Origin: a virus
Direction: 5' to 3' (one strand)
Virus record (IMG/VR): IMGVR_UViG_3300046808_001035
Length of the DNA stretch: 64,000 nt
Below the pieces are notes generated by a model. It was not told the DNA's origin. It did no database searches and saw nothing but the letters and a program-made list of their open reading frames with translations. Positions 4,149 to 50,531 of the stretch are shown here, in pieces (position 1 is the stretch's first letter; each line of letters begins with the position of its first letter). The position numbers were made by a program, and so were the translations under genes.

Positions 4149-4646
4149 CTACCACCCTTGTTCTTGCTTTGTTTGATTGATCAGCTCATCCAGCTTTTGG
4201 TTGTAGCGTCTAACTCCTAAGCCTGCACCTAGAGCTCTTCCTCCAAGTCTACCTGAACTAACAGCACTTTGTATTGCTTCAGGGTCAGTTTGGCCTAGTA
4301 AATGAGATAGTCCATAGCCTGCAGCCCCTCCAGCGATGTCTCCCAGGAATGTGCCTCCAGAGATATTAGCTGTTCTGCTTGGAGAGCCCTCTTCGCTTGT
4401 GAGATCTTGATAAGCGTTATATGCAATAGGAGCCATCCCACCAGCTTCACCACCAACACTATCAGGAGCAACTCTACCCATCATCATAGCTCCTAGCATG
4501 TTCATCATTGGGTTAGCCTTCTGTTGTTCGAGGTTATAGACGTTTCTTTCGGCACGCTTCAGTAGCGCAACAGCCTCAGCTTCATTGAAGCCGTATTCAC
4601 TTGCTCTCTTAACGAATCCTTCGATGTATGCTTGCTCGTTAGTCAT
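4149..4646 (-). CDS. Shared-leader family protein (Gly/Ala-rich tail)
   Basis: N-terminus MTNEQAYIEGFVKRASEYGFNEAEAVALLKRA. Confidence 0.8.
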   Translation of the reverse strand: MTNEQAYIEGFVKRASEYGFNEAEAVALLKRAERNVYNLEQQKANPMMNMLGAMMMGRVAPDSVGGEAGGMAPIAYNAYQDLTSEEGSPSRTANISGGTFLGDIAGGAAGYGLSHLLGQTDPEAIQSAVSSGRLGGRALGAGLGVRRYNQKLDELINQTKQEQGW

Positions 4647-4647
4647 A

Positions 4648-4884
4648 TTAGAATTGTTCGTCGGCGGGCATAGGGACGAGAGGTTTTTTAGGAGGATTAG
4701 CTACATCATTAGCATTTCCCTTGATCGCGCTCGGTACCTTAGGTGCTGGTGCTTTAGGCTTACCAGCCATAGGCATTTCTCCTGCAGCCTGCTTTAAAAA
4801 ATTAATAGCTTCAGCTTCATTAAAGCCATATTCAGCTGCTCTCTTTACGAATCCCTCGATGTATGCTTGTTCTTGTTGTGTCAT
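4648..4884 (-). CDS. Shared-leader family protein (short Pro/Lys-rich tail)
   Basis: N-terminus MTQQEQAYIEGFVKRAAEYGFNEAEAINFLKQA. Confidence 0.8.
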   Translation of the reverse strand: MTQQEQAYIEGFVKRAAEYGFNEAEAINFLKQAAGEMPMAGKPKAPAPKVPSAIKGNANDVANPPKKPLVPMPADEQF

Positions 4885-4886
4885 AG

Positions 4887-5231
4887 TTATTCTGGTCTAG
4901 TTTTAAGTTTATTTCTCCAAAGGTCCACATCTTCTCTGACATTCTCATTTAAGCTTTTATAGTTACCCAAGTGGCCAAAGAATAAATGACAATATACTCC
5001 ATTACCTTTATCTTCGCAAAGAGTAATTAGGTTATTTGGGTCGAGTTCTAGCTCAGGGTTTAAGTGAAAAGGCTTTATATGATGAACCTCTAGCTTCTTC
5101 GTACCCTCGCAGAGAGCACAGGTAGGGTTGTTCTTGATGTGGTTCTTTCTAACAGTACGCCAATGCGACGATCTTTTGTGCAGGGGCTCTTTACCCTCCT
5201 GCATTTCTTTAAGTGTCGTTACGTTAGCCAT
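4887..5231 (-). CDS. HNH endonuclease (small phage type)
   Basis: W..VR...P.CxxC...LEVHHIKP...NLITLC...CH motif. Confidence 0.85.
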   Translation of the reverse strand: MANVTTLKEMQEGKEPLHKRSSHWRTVRKNHIKNNPTCALCEGTKKLEVHHIKPFHLNPELELDPNNLITLCEDKGNGVYCHLFFGHLGNYKSLNENVREDVDLWRNKLKTRPE

Positions 5232-5270
5232 AGATAGATTTTATAATACTAGAGTATTTTCTGCAAATAT

Positions 5271-5305
5271 ATAAAAGAAAAGACCCTCAGGTAATGAGAG
5301 TCTTT
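5271..5305 (-). terminator. Rho-independent terminator
   Basis: Minus strand AAAGACTCTCA-TTACC-TGAGGGTCTTT followed by TCTTTT, just downstream of 5327..5929. Confidence 0.7.
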
Positions 5306-5326
5306 AGCTTTACTAGGTTAATTAAA

Positions 5327-5929
5327 TTATCTAGCACCAGCAATACCTAGAGTCTGATTTCCTCCAAATGTATTATTTACAGCTGGAAGATTGAGTATGG
5401 GGCTATCTGCTCCAGGACCGACAGGAGTTCTTTGATACCCTGCTGCCCTTAAGCTTGGACCATAGAAAGTGTGCGCCGCTTGCTCTGCTCCTTGGCCTAA
5501 CGATTCTGCAGCTCCTGAGATTCCCTGTCTTAAAGCACTGCCAGCCCCTGAAAAACCTTGTCTTAAAGCGCTACCAGCTCCTGAAAAGCCTTGCCCCAGT
5601 GCCCTACCTGTCTGTCCAACCGTATTCATAGTATCGCGCACTCCTTGGCCTACAGTATTTACAGCGCCCTCAAGCTTCTGCCCCATATTGGAAGCTAAAT
5701 TATGTGCTCCCTGGTTCAAGGCCCTACCTGCCCCCATAACCATGTCCTTACCTCTATTAAAGGTATTTCCTACAGCTTGTACACCGCTGTCGGCCTTTGC
5801 TCCAAGCCTTTGACCTAAATCTGCAAAAGAAAAAGCTCTTTTGTATAATTCAATAGCCTCAGCTTCATTATAGCCGTATTCACTTGCTCTCTTTACGAAT
5901 CCGTTGATGTATGCTTGTTGTGTGTTCAT
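5327..5929 (-). CDS. Shared-leader family protein (11-aa Gly-rich repeats, QGFSGAGSALR)
   Basis: N-terminus MNTQQAYINGFVKRASEYGYNEAEAIELYKRA. Confidence 0.8.
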   Translation of the reverse strand: MNTQQAYINGFVKRASEYGYNEAEAIELYKRAFSFADLGQRLGAKADSGVQAVGNTFNRGKDMVMGAGRALNQGAHNLASNMGQKLEGAVNTVGQGVRDTMNTVGQTGRALGQGFSGAGSALRQGFSGAGSALRQGISGAAESLGQGAEQAAHTFYGPSLRAAGYQRTPVGPGADSPILNLPAVNNTFGGNQTLGIAGAR

Positions 5930-5973
5930 AATTTCTTCTAGTTTATTCTAAACTCTAGAATATATCAAATATT

Positions 5974-6420
5974 TTATAGCTTTTTAGTCGCCCTTCTTTT
6001 CCCATATGCTTCTAGTATTTTTTCTCGCACAAGCTCATCTTCTTCCTCGATATCTTCCTCGTCTAAACGCAATACGACATAGCCTCCCTTTGTAAGCTTT
6101 TGAGTTTTCTGACTGTCCTTGTATTGAGTCATAGCGTCTCCATGCCAGTATGCTCCATCAGCAAAAATAGCCACATTAGGCTCGATAAAGATGTCAGCGA
6201 TAGTGACACCTAGAATAGGTTTTTGAGTAACAAACTCTATATCTAGAGCCAAGAGCATAGCTTGCAGCTTAAGTTCTATACCTGTCTCTTTTCTGTCTCC
6301 AGAAAGATACCCTTTGATACTTGCGCACCGTTTAGAGCAAGTCTTGCCTTCCCGCATTCTTTCACTTTCACGAGGCCAGAGCTTTCCGCAAGTCTTGCAC
6401 TCGAATTTTTGCTTTTTCAT
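5974..6420 (-). CDS. DUF559/Vsr-like endonuclease with N-terminal Zn finger
   Basis: CxxC...CSxxC followed by E..L...L...Q...ADIFI...AIFADGAYWH...D..K...L...GYVVLRL. Confidence 0.75.
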   Translation of the reverse strand: MKKQKFECKTCGKLWPRESERMREGKTCSKRCASIKGYLSGDRKETGIELKLQAMLLALDIEFVTQKPILGVTIADIFIEPNVAIFADGAYWHGDAMTQYKDSQKTQKLTKGGYVVLRLDEEDIEEEDELVREKILEAYGKRRATKKL

Positions 6421-7778
6421 CAAGCAATCAATTCTTTGATCACATTACCATACACGTCAGTGAGCCTAAAGGGTCTGCCGTTATAGTTATAAATCAAACG
6501 TTCATGATCAAATCCCATTAAACGCAAGATAGTAGCATGAAGATCGTGGATGTGTACGATGTCTTTCATAGATTTAGAGCCCACCTCGTCAGTCTCTCCA
6601 TACCTTTGACCTCCTTTGACTCCTCCTCCGCACATCCATACACTGAAAGCTTTGCCGTTGTGATCTCTACCTGGAGCTCCTGCGCCTCCACCACTGGTAA
6701 CAGTACGTCCAAATTCACCTCCCCACACAATTAATACACTGTCGAATAATCCTCGTTGCTTGAGATCGCCTATAAGTGCGCTAAAAGCCTGATCATATCT
6801 ACGAGCTGTGTTACTCATAGCGTTTTTAATATCACTGTGGTGGTCATACCCCCCAACATTTACCTGAACCACACGCACACCACGCTCTACAAGCCTACGA
6901 GCAATCAGCATCTTTGCTCCTTCCTCAGTTTTTCCGTAGGCTTCTTTAATATTCTCAGGTTCTTTAGATATATCGAACGCGTCGCTAGCCTCTGTCTGCA
7001 TTTTAAACGCTGTCTCAAACGACTCTATACGGCTTTCTAGCTGTTCGTCTTTTTGAAGCTTCAGCATATGCTCAGTACTGAGGCTTTTTGCAAAGTCAAG
7101 TTGGCGTCTTTGACGAGATAACGACGAAACCTCGCTCTGAAGGTTAGCCAAAATCTCACTAGATTGTATATTCTGTCGATAGTTTACATTGCACCCCTGA
7201 TACATGCCTGGAAGAAATGCGCACTGACGAGATTCTGGAGAACTATTCAATGAAATGAACCCAGGCATGTTCTCATTTTGAGTGCCTAACCCATAAACGA
7301 GCCAGCTGCCTAGGCTAGGTTTACTAAGCTGCGCTGAACCTGTATGCATAAGCTTGCTAGCTATTCCATGATCAGGGATGTCTGTCTGCATGCTGTTGAT
7401 GATAGCCAGGTCATCAGCATGCTTACCCAACTCTTTCCATACCTCACTGATATTTAATCCTGATTTTCCAAATCTAGGAAATTCAAACGGTGAAGCTAAC
7501 AGATTACCGTAGTCGTGCTTCACTCCATCTCGCTTCTGCAGTTCAGGCTTATAGTCGAATGTGTCTACATGACTAGGCGCACCGCTAGCAAACAATTGAA
7601 TTATTGCTTTAGCCTTTACTGGGAAGTGTGGAGTCTTAGCAGCCATAGGGCTAGCTGCTTCTAGCGTTGTTGGGTTCAACCCAAACACGCTAGCTAGAGA
7701 CAATCCGCCCAAACCCCAGGCGAATTCGTTTAGGAATTCTCTTCTACTAGAGAACGATGGGTGATTGCCGCAGTTCAT
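6420..7778 (-). CDS. DUF1501 family protein with twin-arginine (Tat) signal
   Basis: SSRREFL Tat motif; AKAIIQLF.SGAPSHVDTFDYKP, ARRLVERGVR.VQ, YDHH, VWGGEFGRT, GRDHN, GGG.KGG..YGETD, HIHDLHATIL, RLTDV.G motifs. Start moved to ATG 7778, one base after the upstream TAA. Confidence 0.9.
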   Translation of the reverse strand: MNCGNHPSFSSRREFLNEFAWGLGGLSLASVFGLNPTTLEAASPMAAKTPHFPVKAKAIIQLFASGAPSHVDTFDYKPELQKRDGVKHDYGNLLASPFEFPRFGKSGLNISEVWKELGKHADDLAIINSMQTDIPDHGIASKLMHTGSAQLSKPSLGSWLVYGLGTQNENMPGFISLNSSPESRQCAFLPGMYQGCNVNYRQNIQSSEILANLQSEVSSLSRQRRQLDFAKSLSTEHMLKLQKDEQLESRIESFETAFKMQTEASDAFDISKEPENIKEAYGKTEEGAKMLIARRLVERGVRVVQVNVGGYDHHSDIKNAMSNTARRYDQAFSALIGDLKQRGLFDSVLIVWGGEFGRTVTSGGGAGAPGRDHNGKAFSVWMCGGGVKGGQRYGETDEVGSKSMKDIVHIHDLHATILRLMGFDHERLIYNYNGRPFRLTDVYGNVIKELIA

Positions 7779-7779
7779 A

Positions 7780-8520
7780 TTATTTAAACCTTTTTGCAAA
7801 AGAGTCGTTAAAAGATTTTTGCCATTCTTTTAAATCAAGATTTTTAACTGTCGCAAAAAAATCGTTTTCTTTTTCGTACTCGGACAAATCTGGTATATTC
7901 TGAATGGGAGGTCTAAAAGATTTTCCCCATTTAGGGTTGTATTTATTCATATGCTCTTTGAGCATCTTATTGTAGAGATACTCTTGAGATGCTGGAAAAT
8001 CTGGTGAGTTTATGTCTTCCGTGTAAGCATCTACAAATTTATTGCCATCATATTTTTGTGGACGCGGTAAGGGCTTATTACGGTACTGGTTTGCGCTTGC
8101 AAGATCTCTGAAATGACCACTTGCCATATCTGTAGAGTCAAAGGCGTCTTGCTTGACAGAAGAATCAGGGGGGTCAAACCCAAACACAGGTTTTTTACCC
8201 ATAATATCTCCAAGCCCTTGCACCCACTTGTCTTTCGGCGTCATGCTAGATAAAGGAGCATTTTTCAAAATACTTAAATCTTTCTTGTTCGGTGTATATC
8301 CTGGTGCACTAGATGCAGGCGCAACACTAGGCGATTGAGTAGTTGTAGCAGAATTAAAGTTCTGCTGCTTAGTTGCACCAGCAGGCCACATAGGATCTTG
8401 CTGAGCTACCACATTTTGAGCGTTAGCTCTCTTCCACAGCGTGATAGCTTCATTTTCACTGTAGCCATAGTCAGCCGCCCTCTTTACAAACCCATTGATG
8501 TATGCTCGCTGTGTGGTCAT
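7780..8520 (-). CDS. Shared-leader family protein
   Basis: N-terminus MTTQRAYINGFVKRAADYGYSENEAITLWKRA. Confidence 0.8.
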   Translation of the reverse strand: MTTQRAYINGFVKRAADYGYSENEAITLWKRANAQNVVAQQDPMWPAGATKQQNFNSATTTQSPSVAPASSAPGYTPNKKDLSILKNAPLSSMTPKDKWVQGLGDIMGKKPVFGFDPPDSSVKQDAFDSTDMASGHFRDLASANQYRNKPLPRPQKYDGNKFVDAYTEDINSPDFPASQEYLYNKMLKEHMNKYNPKWGKSFRPPIQNIPDLSEYEKENDFFATVKNLDLKEWQKSFNDSFAKRFK

Positions 8521-8546
8521 ATTGCTTTACTCTAACTCAAACGCAA

Positions 8547-8587
8547 ATCAGGGATCACCGAAGCTTTAATCTCCAATGATCCCTGAT
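8547..8587. terminator. Intergenic hairpin (11-bp inverted repeat), possible terminator/processing site
   Basis: ATCAGGGATCA ... TGATCCCTGAT. Confidence 0.5.
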
Positions 8588-8606
8588 ATTACTAACGCTT
8601 TTTAAG

Positions 8607-9131
8607 TTACTTTCTTCCAGGAGCTGCTGTGGCAGGGGCATTACCCATAACTCCACCGTAAGCATTAGCTGGACTCTTTCTTGTTCCCTGCATGTTCGGG
8701 TTGTTGATACCTAAAAACCCCATGATCTTCTCATTCATGGTAGGATCAGCACTTGCTGCTGCAGAGCCCCCACCAATAACAGCAGAGCTAGGGGTTGGTG
8801 TAGGTGCCTGAGGCTTGACTGAAGGTGCAAGTGCCTGAGGCTTGACTGAAGGTGCAGCCGCACCTCCACGGTTAAAAAGACTAGACATGATTTGCGTGTC
8901 TGGTGTGCCTGGAGCTGTTAACGGATTAAACCCGTCCGCAGCTTGTTTACGCTGTCTGAGCTTTTTTAGATCAGAACCTTCAATCTTGCCGTCTTTATCT
9001 ACATCAAGCTTATGCTGATCTCCTTTGAGCTCAGATGCTCTCTTAAAGATCTCTACAGCCTCATGTTGACTGAAGCCATACTCAGCTGCGCGCTTAACGA
9101 ATCCTTCAATATATGCTTGTTCTAAGTTCAT
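8607..9131 (-). CDS. Shared-leader family protein with EF-hand-like micro-module
   Basis: MNLEQAYIEGFVKRAAEYGFSQHEAVEIFKRA then KLDVDKDGKIEGSDLKKLR, KQA, and a Pro/Ala-rich tail. Confidence 0.8.
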   Translation of the reverse strand: MNLEQAYIEGFVKRAAEYGFSQHEAVEIFKRASELKGDQHKLDVDKDGKIEGSDLKKLRQRKQAADGFNPLTAPGTPDTQIMSSLFNRGGAAAPSVKPQALAPSVKPQAPTPTPSSAVIGGGSAAASADPTMNEKIMGFLGINNPNMQGTRKSPANAYGGVMGNAPATAAPGRK

Positions 9132-13433: not shown

Positions 13434-13784
13434 CTAGGCTAGCACGCTCTTTTTGAGTCGATACTTATCAGCCAATTCAGCCAATGCATCTCTCCAGAGT
13501 TTTACGACGAGGTCATCATGGATCTCTTGCAGTTCTCTGATCAGCTTGAGATGCTTCTTGGGGGCATAGTTCGTTTCAACTAGATCTCTCCAAGTTTTCA
13601 TCTCAATTTTGCGGTCATACTCATCATCCGCAATGAGACAACCTGCTGCACATCGAAGCGGACCATGATGATATCTGCATGTCACCTGTGTGGCGCTTCG
13701 CACGTTTTGTTCGAGCAGGTGCTTTGCTACCTGATCGAAGACTTGCTGCCTCGTGCTCTTATTGAGTGTTTTCAGTGTGATCAT
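13434..13784 (-). CDS. MITL/CAAGCLI paralogue family member (cassette D)
   Basis: Start set at MITLKTL; QVFDQVAKHLL..C.Y...LRCAAGCLIADDEY...LIRELQEIHD shared with four other ORFs. Confidence 0.75.
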   Translation of the reverse strand: MITLKTLNKSTRQQVFDQVAKHLLEQNVRSATQVTCRYHHGPLRCAAGCLIADDEYDRKIEMKTWRDLVETNYAPKKHLKLIRELQEIHDDLVVKLWRDALAELADKYRLKKSVLA

Positions 13785-14119
13785 AGATATCCGTGGGTTT
13801 CGAACTTTCCATTTTCTTTTTCTAGCAGTATTTGGAAATTCGTTTTCTCGAATTTGCATATGAGGTTGTGTAGAACCTCTATATGCTTTTTGAATATGAA
13901 AACCCCGATTACTGTCTCTCCATCGAGGTTCGGCTTCAGCTCTTCTAGCGTAGCCTGTAGGGGTTTTACCCTACTATCAATAACCATACCCACAACCGGA
14001 GTACAGTCTCGCAGTTTTGGAAAAGCTGCGGCAAGATGACTATGAGATATCTTCTCGATATCTTCACCACTCTTGTTGTCTTTTGTGGGGACTACCACAA
14101 TCGCCGTTTTAATCTTCAT
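13781..14119 (-). CDS. Hypothetical protein (cassette D)
   Basis: 112 aa; ATGA overlaps with both neighbours. Confidence 0.6.
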   Translation of the reverse strand: MKIKTAIVVVPTKDNKSGEDIEKISHSHLAAAFPKLRDCTPVVGMVIDSRVKPLQATLEELKPNLDGETVIGVFIFKKHIEVLHNLICKFEKTNFQILLEKENGKFETHGYL

Positions 14120-15048: not shown

Positions 15049-15125
15049 ATTATCCCACGAATATCTTATTTTTAACAGGGGGGGTACCCAGGAGCTAAAA
15101 AAAGAGAGGGATTGAACCTTTCTTT
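15049..15125 (-). promoter_or_regulatory. Cassette junction J3
   Basis: GAAAGG-TTCAATC-CCTCTC TTTTTTT AGCT CCTG GGTACCCCCCC TGTTAA-N14-TGGGATAAT. Confidence 0.8.
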
Positions 15126-15811: not shown

Positions 15812-15881
15812 AATACTGATATTTACTGCGTTACTGAAATGGTGCACCAGGCAGGACTCGAACCTGCGACCAACCACTTAG

Positions 15882-16480
15882 CTTCCTACTCTATATTACT
15901 ATAGCCAACTCATGTTGTTGTAGGCTGGACTATGTCTTCACCTTTACAGGTGGAATGCGTATAGTCTCTACGGAACCCCTGTGACTGGGTTTCCTCGGCG
16001 TTGTCCATAAACCTAGTATAGACTTCTTGGATATTCGCCGAAATAGCATTCTCCACTTCTACGGTTTTTACACCCAACTGTATATTTCTAGAGAGCTTTC
16101 CTCTGCATGCTTTCGAACAACAAGTATACTTGCCGTTTTTACTCAGATGTGTTTGGTTGTGTACTCTATCAAATATAACTCCACAATTTGGACATTTTAG
16201 TTTTACCCATTTACGTCCATGCTCGTGTGCGTGTAAGGTAGCGTGCTCATTTAAAATCATAACTTCTAGATTCTCTATACGATTATCTTTTTTATTATGG
16301 TTTTTATGATGCACAACTTCCGATTTATCGAGAATACGGTTCAGGTGATTTTCAACTACGATGCGATGCTCTAGCACATATCCATGCTTGGTAGCATTAG
16401 GATGTGCTTTAACTTTCATATAGTTGTATTCTCCTTTACTGATCACTTTCTCGATTTTCCACATAGAAGGCTCCTAACTG
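15882..16480 (-). mobile_element. Group I intron (599 nt) in the tRNA-Arg anticodon
   Basis: U before the 5' splice site and terminal G; P1 (CUU|C with GGAG), P10 (CUAA/UUAG), P3 GAAUGC/GCAUUC, P4 UCGGCG/CGCCGA, P7 GACUA/UAGUC, P8 CACCU-GUAA-AGGUG; R GUAGAGACUA and S AAGACAUAGUCC elements. Confidence 0.9.
15910..16464 (-). CDS. Intron-encoded HNH homing endonuclease
   Basis: HGYVLEHRIVVE...EVVHHKNHNKKDNRIENLEV...H plus CxxC...CSxxC finger; AGGAG 6 nt upstream of ATG. Confidence 0.9.
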   Translation of the reverse strand: MWKIEKVISKGEYNYMKVKAHPNATKHGYVLEHRIVVENHLNRILDKSEVVHHKNHNKKDNRIENLEVMILNEHATLHAHEHGRKWVKLKCPNCGVIFDRVHNQTHLSKNGKYTCCSKACRGKLSRNIQLGVKTVEVENAISANIQEVYTRFMDNAEETQSQGFRRDYTHSTCKGEDIVQPTTT

Positions 16481-16517
16481 AAGGCAGTTGCTCTATCCAA
16501 CTGAGCTACTGGTGCGT

Positions 16518-16605
16518 TGGTGGCCTAGGCGGGACTTGAACCCGCACGGGGAGTGCTCCCCAACAGATTTTAAGTCTGTCGTGTCTGCCATTTCACCACA
16601 GGGCC
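16518..16605 (-). tRNA. tRNA-Leu(UAA)
   Basis: Cloverleaf with ACAGA-CT-TAA-AA-TCTGT, long variable arm, TTCAAGT loop, encoded CCA. Confidence 0.93.
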
Positions 16606-17828: not shown

Positions 17829-17904
17829 TGGTAGGCCTGGTTGGAATTGAACCAACAACCAAGCGTTTATGAGACGCCTGCTCTAACCATTGAGCTACAG
17901 GCCC
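17829..17904 (-). tRNA. tRNA with CAU anticodon, probably Ile2 (lysidine type)
   Basis: GGGCCTG TA GCTC AATGGTTA GAGC A GGCGT CT CAT AA ACGCT...CAGGCCT A CCA; body resembles bacterial tRNA-Ile2. Confidence 0.85.
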
Positions 17905-17950
17905 ATTCATTTATCGAGTGATTTGAAAGCTAATGCTTCCCTATCAATAT

Positions 17951-17979
17951 ATTATACCAAAAACAAACCAAAAATCGTA
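17951..17979 (-). promoter_or_regulatory. Promoter of the tRNA operon (same class as the cassette promoters)
   Basis: TACGAT-N14-TGGTATAAT-ATATTG. Confidence 0.7.
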
Positions 17980-34863: not shown

Positions 34864-35226
34864 TTAAGAGTCTATAACTGCACAATCTAGCTGAAATAGT
34901 TGAGCAATCGTGGCAAGCTCTTCCCGCCATTGAAAAACATCGTATTCGTCGTGGATCTTCTGCAGTTCTCTTATTAAATGATCGTGCGTCTTTGGCACTT
35001 TCTTAAACCTAGTCAAATCAAACCACGTATTGCTCTCTAGGCTGAAGTTATACTCATCATCACCGATGAGACATCCTGCAGCGCATTTTAGTCCTTCGTC
35101 ATTTCTGTATACGCAGAATTTATTATCGCTATCCTGACACCTTTTACCTTGTTTTAGTAAGTGCTCTGCAACCTGGTCAAATACCTCTTGTGCGGTTGCT
35201 TGCTCTAGTGTTGCTAGTGTGATCAT
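34864..35226 (-). CDS. MITL/CAAGCLI family member
   Basis: MITLATLEQATAQEVFDQVAEHLL...GLKCAAGCLIGDDEY...ELQKIHD. Confidence 0.8.
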   Translation of the reverse strand: MITLATLEQATAQEVFDQVAEHLLKQGKRCQDSDNKFCVYRNDEGLKCAAGCLIGDDEYNFSLESNTWFDLTRFKKVPKTHDHLIRELQKIHDEYDVFQWREELATIAQLFQLDCAVIDS

Positions 35227-35618
35227 TTGTTTTCAAATTGGTCAATTATTGTACTGTTAAGGTTTCTTAGCTCTGCAATGTTCTTCAATCTAACTATCCA
35301 ATCTTCTTCTGGATAATACTGTGAATTGTCGTGAATACCCTGCAATTCTGATATGAGTCTGCTATGCTTATTACTAAGCACAACTCCTTGACTAATCAAG
35401 GTTGACCAAGGAGTAGTATTCATCCCCTGAGATGACACAAACTTCGCTTCTTCGTCACTCATCAAGCATCCTGCAGCGCATTTGAGTCCACCGTCCCCTC
35501 GATAGGCACAAACATCATGATTGATCATACTTCTCTGTTTCTGAGTGAGCATATGTGCTGCCACCTGGTCAAACACTTCCTGTGCTGTGGCTTGTTCTAA
35601 TGTTGCTAGTGTGATCAT
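35223..35618 (-). CDS. MITL/CAAGCLI family member
   Basis: First 20 aa identical to the neighbour; GLKCAAGCLM; ELQGIHD. Confidence 0.8.
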   Translation of the reverse strand: MITLATLEQATAQEVFDQVAAHMLTQKQRSMINHDVCAYRGDGGLKCAAGCLMSDEEAKFVSSQGMNTTPWSTLISQGVVLSNKHSRLISELQGIHDNSQYYPEEDWIVRLKNIAELRNLNSTIIDQFENK

Positions 35619-41475: not shown

Positions 41476-41847
41476 TTAATCTCCATAATTTTGACCTAAC
41501 ACGTCTGTGGATAGGTTGTGTAACGCTGCCAGAGTACCTAGTCTTGATCGCCATTCCTCTACAGGGTCGACATCGTGAATGTCTTGAAGCGCTCCAATGA
41601 GTAGCGAATGCTTGGGAGTAACGTCAGCTTCATGAATCAAGTCATCCCAGCAAGTGTCTTCCATCTCCATAAAGTACTCATCTTCACTGATAAGACAACC
41701 CGCCGCACATCTAAGTCCTCCCTCTCCGTAATAAGCACAGTTACCCTGCCGAGATAGACTTTTGGCTCCTTGTGTTAATAGGTGCTTTGCCACATGATCA
41801 AAGACTTCTTGAGCCGTTGCTTTTGGTAATGTTGTTAGCGTGAGCAT
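41476..41847 (-). CDS. MITL/CAAGCLI family member
   Basis: MLTLTTL..ATAQEVFDHVAKHLL...LRCAAGCLISEDEY...LQDIHD. Confidence 0.8.
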   Translation of the reverse strand: MLTLTTLPKATAQEVFDHVAKHLLTQGAKSLSRQGNCAYYGEGGLRCAAGCLISEDEYFMEMEDTCWDDLIHEADVTPKHSLLIGALQDIHDVDPVEEWRSRLGTLAALHNLSTDVLGQNYGD

Positions 41848-49762: not shown

Positions 49763-50173
49763 CTAGGTTGCTTCTGGGAAATACTCTAGAAACAGTTTGA
49801 CCGCTTCTCTGAGTACAGGTATGCACATTTGTCTTTTTAGCCAGGCACGATCATCCTCAACATCTTTATAAAGCGAGGTTTCTATATACACTTGATGATA
49901 TCGGTAAGAGGCAGAAAGAATACTGTCTCCCATAAGCATCATCTGACCATCCTGATAGAAATGAGGGCGGTATGACATAGCTTCGGCGTCAAATATTATG
50001 ATTTTAGCTATAAAAGCACCCGACGCCTGCTTAGGCTCAATTCTCACAACAAAGCCAGGCTCATCAAATATACTGCTAGGAGTGAGCCTGAATTCTCGAT
50101 CAGGTACCGGCCAGATATTAGGACAACCTCGCTTTCTGGTAACACCTTTATCTACAAAATAAAATCTATTCAT
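49763..50173 (-). CDS. Hypothetical protein, paralogue of 54023..54466
   Basis: CPNIWPV.D....TP.S.F.E..FVV.I.PK. Confidence 0.7.
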   Translation of the reverse strand: MNRFYFVDKGVTRKRGCPNIWPVPDREFRLTPSSIFDEPGFVVRIEPKQASGAFIAKIIIFDAEAMSYRPHFYQDGQMMLMGDSILSASYRYHQVYIETSLYKDVEDDRAWLKRQMCIPVLREAVKLFLEYFPEAT

Positions 50174-50531
50174 CTGTAGCGTCTATAGCCTTTGTGTTGA
50201 GTTTGTATTTTTTCGCTATCTCCTCTAAGTAGCTTTTCCACTCTGCAACTTCGACAGTGTCGTGCATGAGCTGCAGTTCCAAAATCAGCATCTCGTGATT
50301 TCGAGAGGCATCATACTCATCTAACACTCCTCGCCAATCAATACCTTCCATATGATTGTCATACTCATCATCTGCGATGAGGCACCCTGCTGCACACTTA
50401 AGTCCATCACAATTGCGATAAGAGCAGCTTGCGCCGTCCAGACTGCGCTTGTTCTGTGCGAGTAAGTGAGTAGCCACCTGGTCAAATACTTCCTGAGCTG
50501 AGGCTTCTCCTAGTGTTTTAAGCGTGATCAT
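50166..50531 (-). CDS. MITL/CAAGCLI family member
   Basis: MITLKTL..ASAQEVFDQVATHLL...GLKCAAGCLIADDEY...ELQLMHD. Confidence 0.8.
   Translation of the reverse strand: MITLKTLGEASAQEVFDQVATHLLAQNKRSLDGASCSYRNCDGLKCAAGCLIADDEYDNHMEGIDWRGVLDEYDASRNHEMLILELQLMHDTVEVAEWKSYLEEIAKKYKLNTKAIDATDE

Follow-up and report, generated by a model that had tools for sequence, protein, structure and literature searches.

A putative mobile group I intron with an HNH endonuclease gene in a phage tRNA-Arg(UCU) gene

In a stretch of 64,000 nucleotides of viral DNA (IMG/VR record IMGVR_UViG_3300046808_001035, in the following "the window"), several hundred bases with a gene of their own separate one half of a tRNA-Arg(UCU) gene from the other. 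This raises the question of what kind of element the insert is, how the tRNA might be restored, and whether the insert could move between genomes. We consider it very probable that it represents a mobile, self-splicing group I intron, with homing driven by its HNH protein and translation of this protein gated by splicing. The mechanism itself is of a known kind. For the phage setting and the endonuclease family no earlier paper was found: a literature coverage that was incomplete yielded none on phage tRNAs interrupted by group I introns, HNH-bearing or otherwise, and none on this HNH family. A recent report is said to cover tRNA introns of Patescibacteria.

The interrupted tRNA gene and its phage

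With introns allowed, ARAGORN predicts a tRNA-Arg(tct) (score 112.6) at c[15840,16515] that is interrupted by 599 nt of intron between U34 and C35 (CCUU / intron / CUAAG). The 5' exon (16481..16515, minus strand; tRNA positions 1-34) ends with U34, and the 3' exon (15840..15881, minus strand) extends from C35 to the encoded CCA. Between them lies the group I intron (15882..16480, minus strand) with an IC3-like architecture and the terminal G15882, an assignment that draws on the Rfam model RF00028, on covariation and on a common junction. Directly upstream, default ARAGORN detects an intron-free tRNA-Leu(UAA) (16518..16605, minus strand), and both tRNA genes probably share one transcript. The identity of the split tRNA, the 34/35 junction and the adjoining Leu(UAA) gene without an intron had been proposed in a first-pass annotation made from the letters of the DNA, and all of them were borne out. 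The annotation was also right in expecting standard finders to be blind to the split gene, as both default ARAGORN and Rfam at its gathering threshold miss it. Because such default scans overlook split genes, phage tRNA sets are undercounted.

The 5' exon contains the Arg identity base A20, and its acceptor and D arms match those of intact tRNA-Arg(UCU) from related phages. In the longer ORFs of the window AGA is the commonest Arg codon (193/449). Two other readings of the gene were rejected. Moving the junction one base downstream would leave the tRNA unchanged, but C(-1) and a terminal C would then be required, and C+1 is absent from most homologues; intron position +1 is U in 48/55 of them. 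A Ser(GCU) tRNA ties in ARAGORN in a few homologues, but the long variable arm is absent and a terminal A would be needed in the window. Among similar DNA contigs no clean joint at the intron ends was found; the joints had intervening letters or short sides and are probably unrelated tRNAs.

The window is part of a large uncultured phage with densely packed small genes, among them genes for an RNA ligase, an exonuclease and ThyX. A 591-aa portal-like protein has look-alike clusters that are 94-100% viral and include portal families, and 53 IMG/VR contigs encode relatives of it. These genes corroborate the phage setting that had been assumed for the element. The best-matching sequencing runs are freshwater metagenomes, and the window may stem from some of them. 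A full-length DUF1501 gene with a Tat-like N-terminus (window 6420-7778, minus strand; E 2e-131) may hint at a host among Planctomycetota or Verrucomicrobiota. We further report that several small ORFs in window 4149-9131 (minus strand) start with a motif of about Q-A-Y-I-x-G-F-V-K-R-A and form a repeated phage protein family, and that five paralogous small ORFs share the motif Q-x-V-F-D-Q-V-A-x-H-L-L (window 13434-13859, 34864-35618, 41476-41847 and 50166-50531, minus strand). Window 15078-15123 is similar to 17849-17963, next to and within a tRNA-Met, and is possibly a tRNA fragment or a short repeat.

Ribozyme structure and splicing

A group I covariance model had been suggested as a check of the insert. 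In a relaxed-threshold Rfam search RF00028 does match 16129-15906 with 36.8 bits (E 2e-7), a score that stays under the gathering score of 50. According to Williams 2020 (bioRxiv 10.1101/2020.01.27.920355), the seed of RF00028 is without bacterial members and a threshold of 20 bits was used instead.

The catalytic core (15927..16051, minus strand), delineated by alignment, covariation and folding, comprises P3 (16051-16046/15958-15953), P4 (16041-16036/16000-15995), P5, P6 (15994-15992/15974-15972), P6a, P7 (15968-15962/15932-15927) and P8 (15952-15939). The P9 domain (15885..15924, minus strand), defined by alignment and covariation, consists of a closing helix, a variable hairpin holding the stop codon of the ORF, and a GNRA-capped hairpin. 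The P3/P7 pseudoknot core is present together with the guanosine-binding pair, which is invariant in the homologues. P3-P9 folds into the same helices from the window sequence alone (z -2.4). In an alignment of 48 homologues 98.4% of the cells are paired over 42 pairs, and 24/42 pairs are compensatory; compensatory changes are found in every core helix, and the G-C pairs in P7 are invariant. Not one of 500 shuffles reached the paired fraction or the covariation score (0/500), and slid controls were 34-41% paired. Although the structure for this test was derived from the window row, both partners of a pair change in 371 cells. By this comparative evidence, the ribozyme structure is conserved across the family. 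P2 found no support as a conserved stable helix, being weak and without consistent folding.

The ends of the intron follow from the sequence (P1 region 16471..16483, minus strand). In P1, exon CUU and intron C+1 are paired with the internal guide GGAG (16474-16471), with U34 forming a wobble with G16473 (U16481.G16473). P10 is formed by UUAG (16477-16474) and exon CUAA; it has 4 bp in the window copy and 1-4 bp across the family. U(-1) and the terminal G occur at the junctions of all family representatives (55/55). The group I core, P1, P10 and the terminal G had been noticed before, and sequence, folding and covariation in 48 homologues agree with them. In the proposed reaction the precursor would fold P1 with U34.G at the 5' splice site, where free guanosine would then attack; P10 would align C35, and joining of the exons would lead to the loop CU-UCU-AA of a tRNA for AGA codons.

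The insert could instead be removed by proteins, i.e. by an endonuclease together with the phage RNA ligase, with its likeness to group I introns being incidental. An RNA ligase is encoded in the window, and introns of unexplained mechanism exist in tRNA genes of Lak megaphages (Devoto 2019, PMC6784885). The authors call them "enigmatic", one of them may encode a tRNA, and the passages of that paper considered here assign neither a group I core nor an endonuclease to them. Against this stand the full catalytic core, the invariant guanosine-binding pair, U(-1).G and the terminal G in all homologues, and we regard protein-mediated removal as hardly credible.

A group I intron could also have ceased to function in the window, i.e. 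the copy could be a decaying element with poor or no splicing and the tRNA a pseudogene. The anticodon stem of the window copy contains two G.U pairs, and P2 is weak. In the related Anabaena tRNA intron, pairing of the exons is of importance to splicing (Zaug 1993, by its title as cited in PMC3984707); the two G.U pairs of the window copy count against splicing. One of them is absent from strains of two other studies, where position 41 (place 15875) is A. All modelled core pairs of the window copy are Watson-Crick (42/42), however, both P1 and P10 pair perfectly, the reading frame is uninterrupted, and intron pieces near-identical to the window copy appear in DNA runs of two other studies. Decay therefore seems very unlikely to us, and an intron capable of splicing is the preferred reading.

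The core fits the compact IC3 type, which lacks P7.1/7.2, P2.1 and P5abc, and together with the P9 layout it resembles the IC3 introns of Williams' alignment; the P2 hairpin, which also belongs to this type, is weak, and membership of subgroup IC3 is tentative. Bacterial IC3 introns of tRNA-Leu(UAA) (34/35), Arg(CCU), fMet and Ile(CAU) have insertion in the anticodon loop, U(-1), the terminal G, the compact core and the P9 layout in common with the window intron, and Leu.3Ug lies at the same position. They reside in bacterial genomes and are mostly ORF-less, whereas the window intron is located in a phage and carries an HNH gene. Williams 2020 (bioRxiv 10.1101/2020.01.27.920355) lists 17 bacterial tRNA intron sites in addition to the four classical ones, and already includes an Arg intron at 34/35 (seed row "Rba190.Arg.3Ug"; bacterial, ORF-less; published anticodon UCU or UCG). 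The window intron has the features of this class: it sits in an Arg tRNA behind the third base of the loop and has U(-1) and a terminal G. The P1 helices of the two (CUUC-loop-GGAG) are nearly identical. The 34/35 Arg insertion site itself is not new. The earlier impression that the intron falls outside the known set holds for the phage setting with an HNH gene, but not for the site.

The HNH endonuclease and its overlap with the ribozyme

The intron contains an ORF of 184 aa (15910..16464, minus strand), described by Pfam, homologue alignment and an AF2 model. It matches HNH_3 (PF13392) above the cut-off (E 8e-9), which confirms the HNH gene that had been noticed in the intron. The protein can be divided into an HNH domain (aa 1-83), a Cys zinc-ribbon region (aa 87-135), a conserved C-terminal segment encoded by P3-P4-P5 (aa 138-152), and a non-conserved tail with its stop in P9. 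Homologues number 329 at E <= 1e-10, and in 49 aligned homologues H52, H53, N61, N65, H74, H78, C91, C94, C116 and C120 are invariant. The AF2 model (pLDDT 85.9) has good confidence as far as about residue 150 but becomes poor past residue 160. Its best structural match is I-HmuI (Z 7.3, rmsd 3.0 over 77 residues, Foldseek E 0.08), a moderate likeness of a predicted model that is limited to aa 1-83. A sequence search of solved structures returned zinc-finger noise only, the exact 184-aa protein is absent from the contig index, and the GenBank phages hold distant HNH genes of which none covers 80% of the query.

I-HmuI, I-BasI and I-PfoP3I are HNH nicking endonucleases of phage group I introns and have the HNH fold in common with the window protein. 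Their introns are located in DNA polymerase genes, whereas the window intron lies in a tRNA gene, and the zinc-ribbon and core-derived C-terminal half of its protein is unlike this group. From these sequence features we infer a predicted homing endonuclease for tRNA-Arg(UCU); its family is apparently undescribed and has one predicted target, the tRNA-Arg(UCU) genes.

A hint towards a regulatory aspect arises from the start of the gene. The ORF begins 16 nt inside the intron, and AGGAG of the guide is also its Shine-Dalgarno sequence, 6 nt before the ATG. The spacing from GGAG to the start is 5-6 nt in all 39 variants with a start codon directly behind the guide (39/39); in most of the variants with a long P1 loop (n=16) the start codon lies inside a predicted hairpin. 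A promoter scan gave nothing above shuffles. As the guide sequence also represents the ribosome-binding site, P1 formation and translation would compete. This could keep ribosomes off the core overlapped by the ORF for as long as the 5' exon is attached.

The nuclease gene would sit between P2 and P3 and have crept into the ribozyme at both ends. In the window copy the ORF reads 142 nt into the core; the largest ORF-core overlap among the examples in Table 1 of PMC3073962 is 81 nt. In 53/55 introns the frame stays open for 144 aa or more, and it is mostly kept through P5, since 42/48 have a P4-to-P4' distance divisible by three. Stop positions differ widely across the family, in agreement with the core-creep hypothesis (PMC3073962), which predicts varying stops. 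Another comparison is the Synechocystis tRNA-fMet intron, which carries I-Ssp6803I (Table 1 of PMC3073962; Bonocora and Shub 2001, cited in PMC3984707). It is likewise a group I intron in a tRNA gene and encodes an endonuclease directed at the anticodon region of that tRNA, and its ORF overlaps P1/P2. It differs in that I-Ssp6803I is a PD-(D/E)XK enzyme for the fMet tRNA in a cyanobacterial chromosome with a 61-nt overlap, compared to an HNH enzyme for Arg(UCU) with 142 nt in the catalytic core. Together with the different natural states of the family described below, the overlap of 142 nt opens core creep, and the link between splicing and translation, to direct testing.

One insertion site, empty alleles and free-standing nuclease genes

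Near full-length HNH homologues were found at 101 loci. A core is present at 86 of them, and 85/86 end with G/CUAA; the sole exception is truncated by the contig end. A strict filter led to 55 clusters at 90% identity (588-660 nt), all of them at Arg(UCU) 34/35 with the junction CUU/CUAA, where one must keep in mind that most of the metagenome loci carry no phage or bacterial classification. The anticodon stems vary among the 55 clusters yet still pair. The insert with its tRNA halves is not a chance pattern. In IMG/VR viral contigs 28 intron clusters occupy Arg(UCU) 34/35, and 20 of these have the nuclease. What had been taken for an unusual combination is indeed a phage HNH intron in tRNA-Arg(UCU), but it belongs to a widespread family (55 clusters) and is not a one-off. 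According to a 2014 review (PMC3984707), phage group I introns were seen only in protein-coding genes despite the many phage tRNAs; the family contradicts this statement at scale.

Shorter forms occupy the same site; the ORF-less introns measure 197-211 nt, and those with the HNH gene deleted 236 and 300 nt. The ORF-less viral introns represent a distinct core subfamily, scoring 83-94 bits with model R1 compared to at least 180 bits for the HNH-deleted derivatives. Judged by their sequences, HNH-bearing, HNH-deleted and ORF-less introns at one site would be the stages expected of a homing cycle. One copy is part of an Acidobacteriota chromosome, with an integrase gene on one side and housekeeping genes on the other (L083; 1/401 genomes searched), and another Acidobacteriota genome (L388) has an ORF-less 34/35 intron. 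Related ORF-less introns in Acidobacteriota tRNA-Arg(UCU) are inserted after base 36 instead of 34 (L389:1429-1718, L397:1471-1846). Acidobacteriota genome G021 contains a tRNA-fMet with a 655-nt group I intron and an ORF (L392:1467-2198), which is like the Synechocystis fMet intron but outside cyanobacteria. In a viral contig with an ORF-less Arg intron, another group I core follows roughly 430 nt downstream (L291:13631-13825).

Empty sites are found in close relatives of the window phage. In relative L403, with a portal-like protein 98% identical, the tRNA-Arg(UCU) gene is uninterrupted at the same place, and the order Leu(UAA)-Arg(UCU)-small ORF is syntenic with the window. Including L403, all 25 related contigs that hold the gene have it intron-free (25/25), and a 33-base spliced stretch is identical in at least 120 viral contigs. 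Because none of the 25 close relatives has the intron, its spread within the clade of the window phage is limited. Compared to some relatives, the window tRNA is close in the acceptor, D and T arms and different in the anticodon arm. A difference confined to the anticodon arm is the pattern expected from co-conversion during homing, and may have arisen in this way. We also considered whether U32 could represent an immunity mark beside free-standing nuclease genes. U32 occurs in 17/20 distinct intact tRNA-Arg(UCU) of related phages (L403-L451), i.e. it is also usual without a nearby nuclease, and C32 of the intron alleles (54/55) is accounted for by P1 pairing; the idea was rejected.

We propose that tRNA-Arg(UCU) genes without the intron, in co-infecting phages and at times in host chromosomes, are cut in their anticodon region by the HNH protein, which most likely makes a nick in the manner of I-HmuI. 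Repair from the intron-bearing copy would spread the element, and the insertion would split the target and thereby protect the donor.

Further evidence arises from homologues without a core. The filter flagged 22 core-less loci; at one of them (L152) the intron was present and had been missed, which leaves 21 true cases. The core model had no match in 9/9 of the core-less loci tested. An intact Arg(UCU) gene lies beside 12/21 true core-less loci compared to 0/58 distant HNH matches, and several core-less loci have a stranded 5' tRNA half upstream. Like them, T4 SegB (PMC13096335) is a free-standing nuclease of a phage tRNA cluster; SegB is a GIY-YIG enzyme without an intron, whereas the window nuclease is intron-encoded.

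These loci bear on the possibility that the intron splices while its nuclease is not a homing enzyme here, being inactive, a maturase, or directed at another target gene. Since the ORF runs into the core, the structure of the RNA imposes some of its conservation, as seen in the Ser codon of the A-I-S-x-N motif encoded by P3-P4, which is TCG in 53/54 intron copies. The catalytic and zinc residues are nevertheless invariant outside the core overlap, and the core-less homologues stay beside Arg(UCU) genes. ORF-less and HNH-deleted introns persist at the site, and the protein is therefore dispensable for splicing across the family. A nuclease without a role in homing is thus improbable in our view, and a homing endonuclease remains the preferred reading.

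The A-I-S-x-N motif is kept in core-less homologues with free codon choice. As identical bases occur in ORF-less introns, it most likely began as ribozyme and would have been adopted by the protein later. In the protein tree the free-standing genes lie dispersed (14 changes among 16 rows of an unrooted, weakly resolved tree), which fits repeated exits from the intron; with such a tree the direction of exit rests on the motif argument. Tentatively, P3-P4 might have been co-opted because the protein needs a folded C-terminal segment, which is kept at the amino-acid level outside the intron. A dual-coded, splicing-gated element might then move among phage and host tRNA-Arg genes and repeatedly shed its ribozyme, leading to free-standing cassettes of nuclease and tRNA. 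We consider this extended scenario possible but doubtful. Natural empty, full, decayed and free-standing states are available within one family.

At two loci (L008:2500-3150, L110:2372-2950) a tRNA-like RNA with an Arg(UCU) anticodon arm, but with no normal D arm, comes after a core-less homologue. In L008 the nuclease gene and this RNA are enclosed by the halves of a split tRNA gene.
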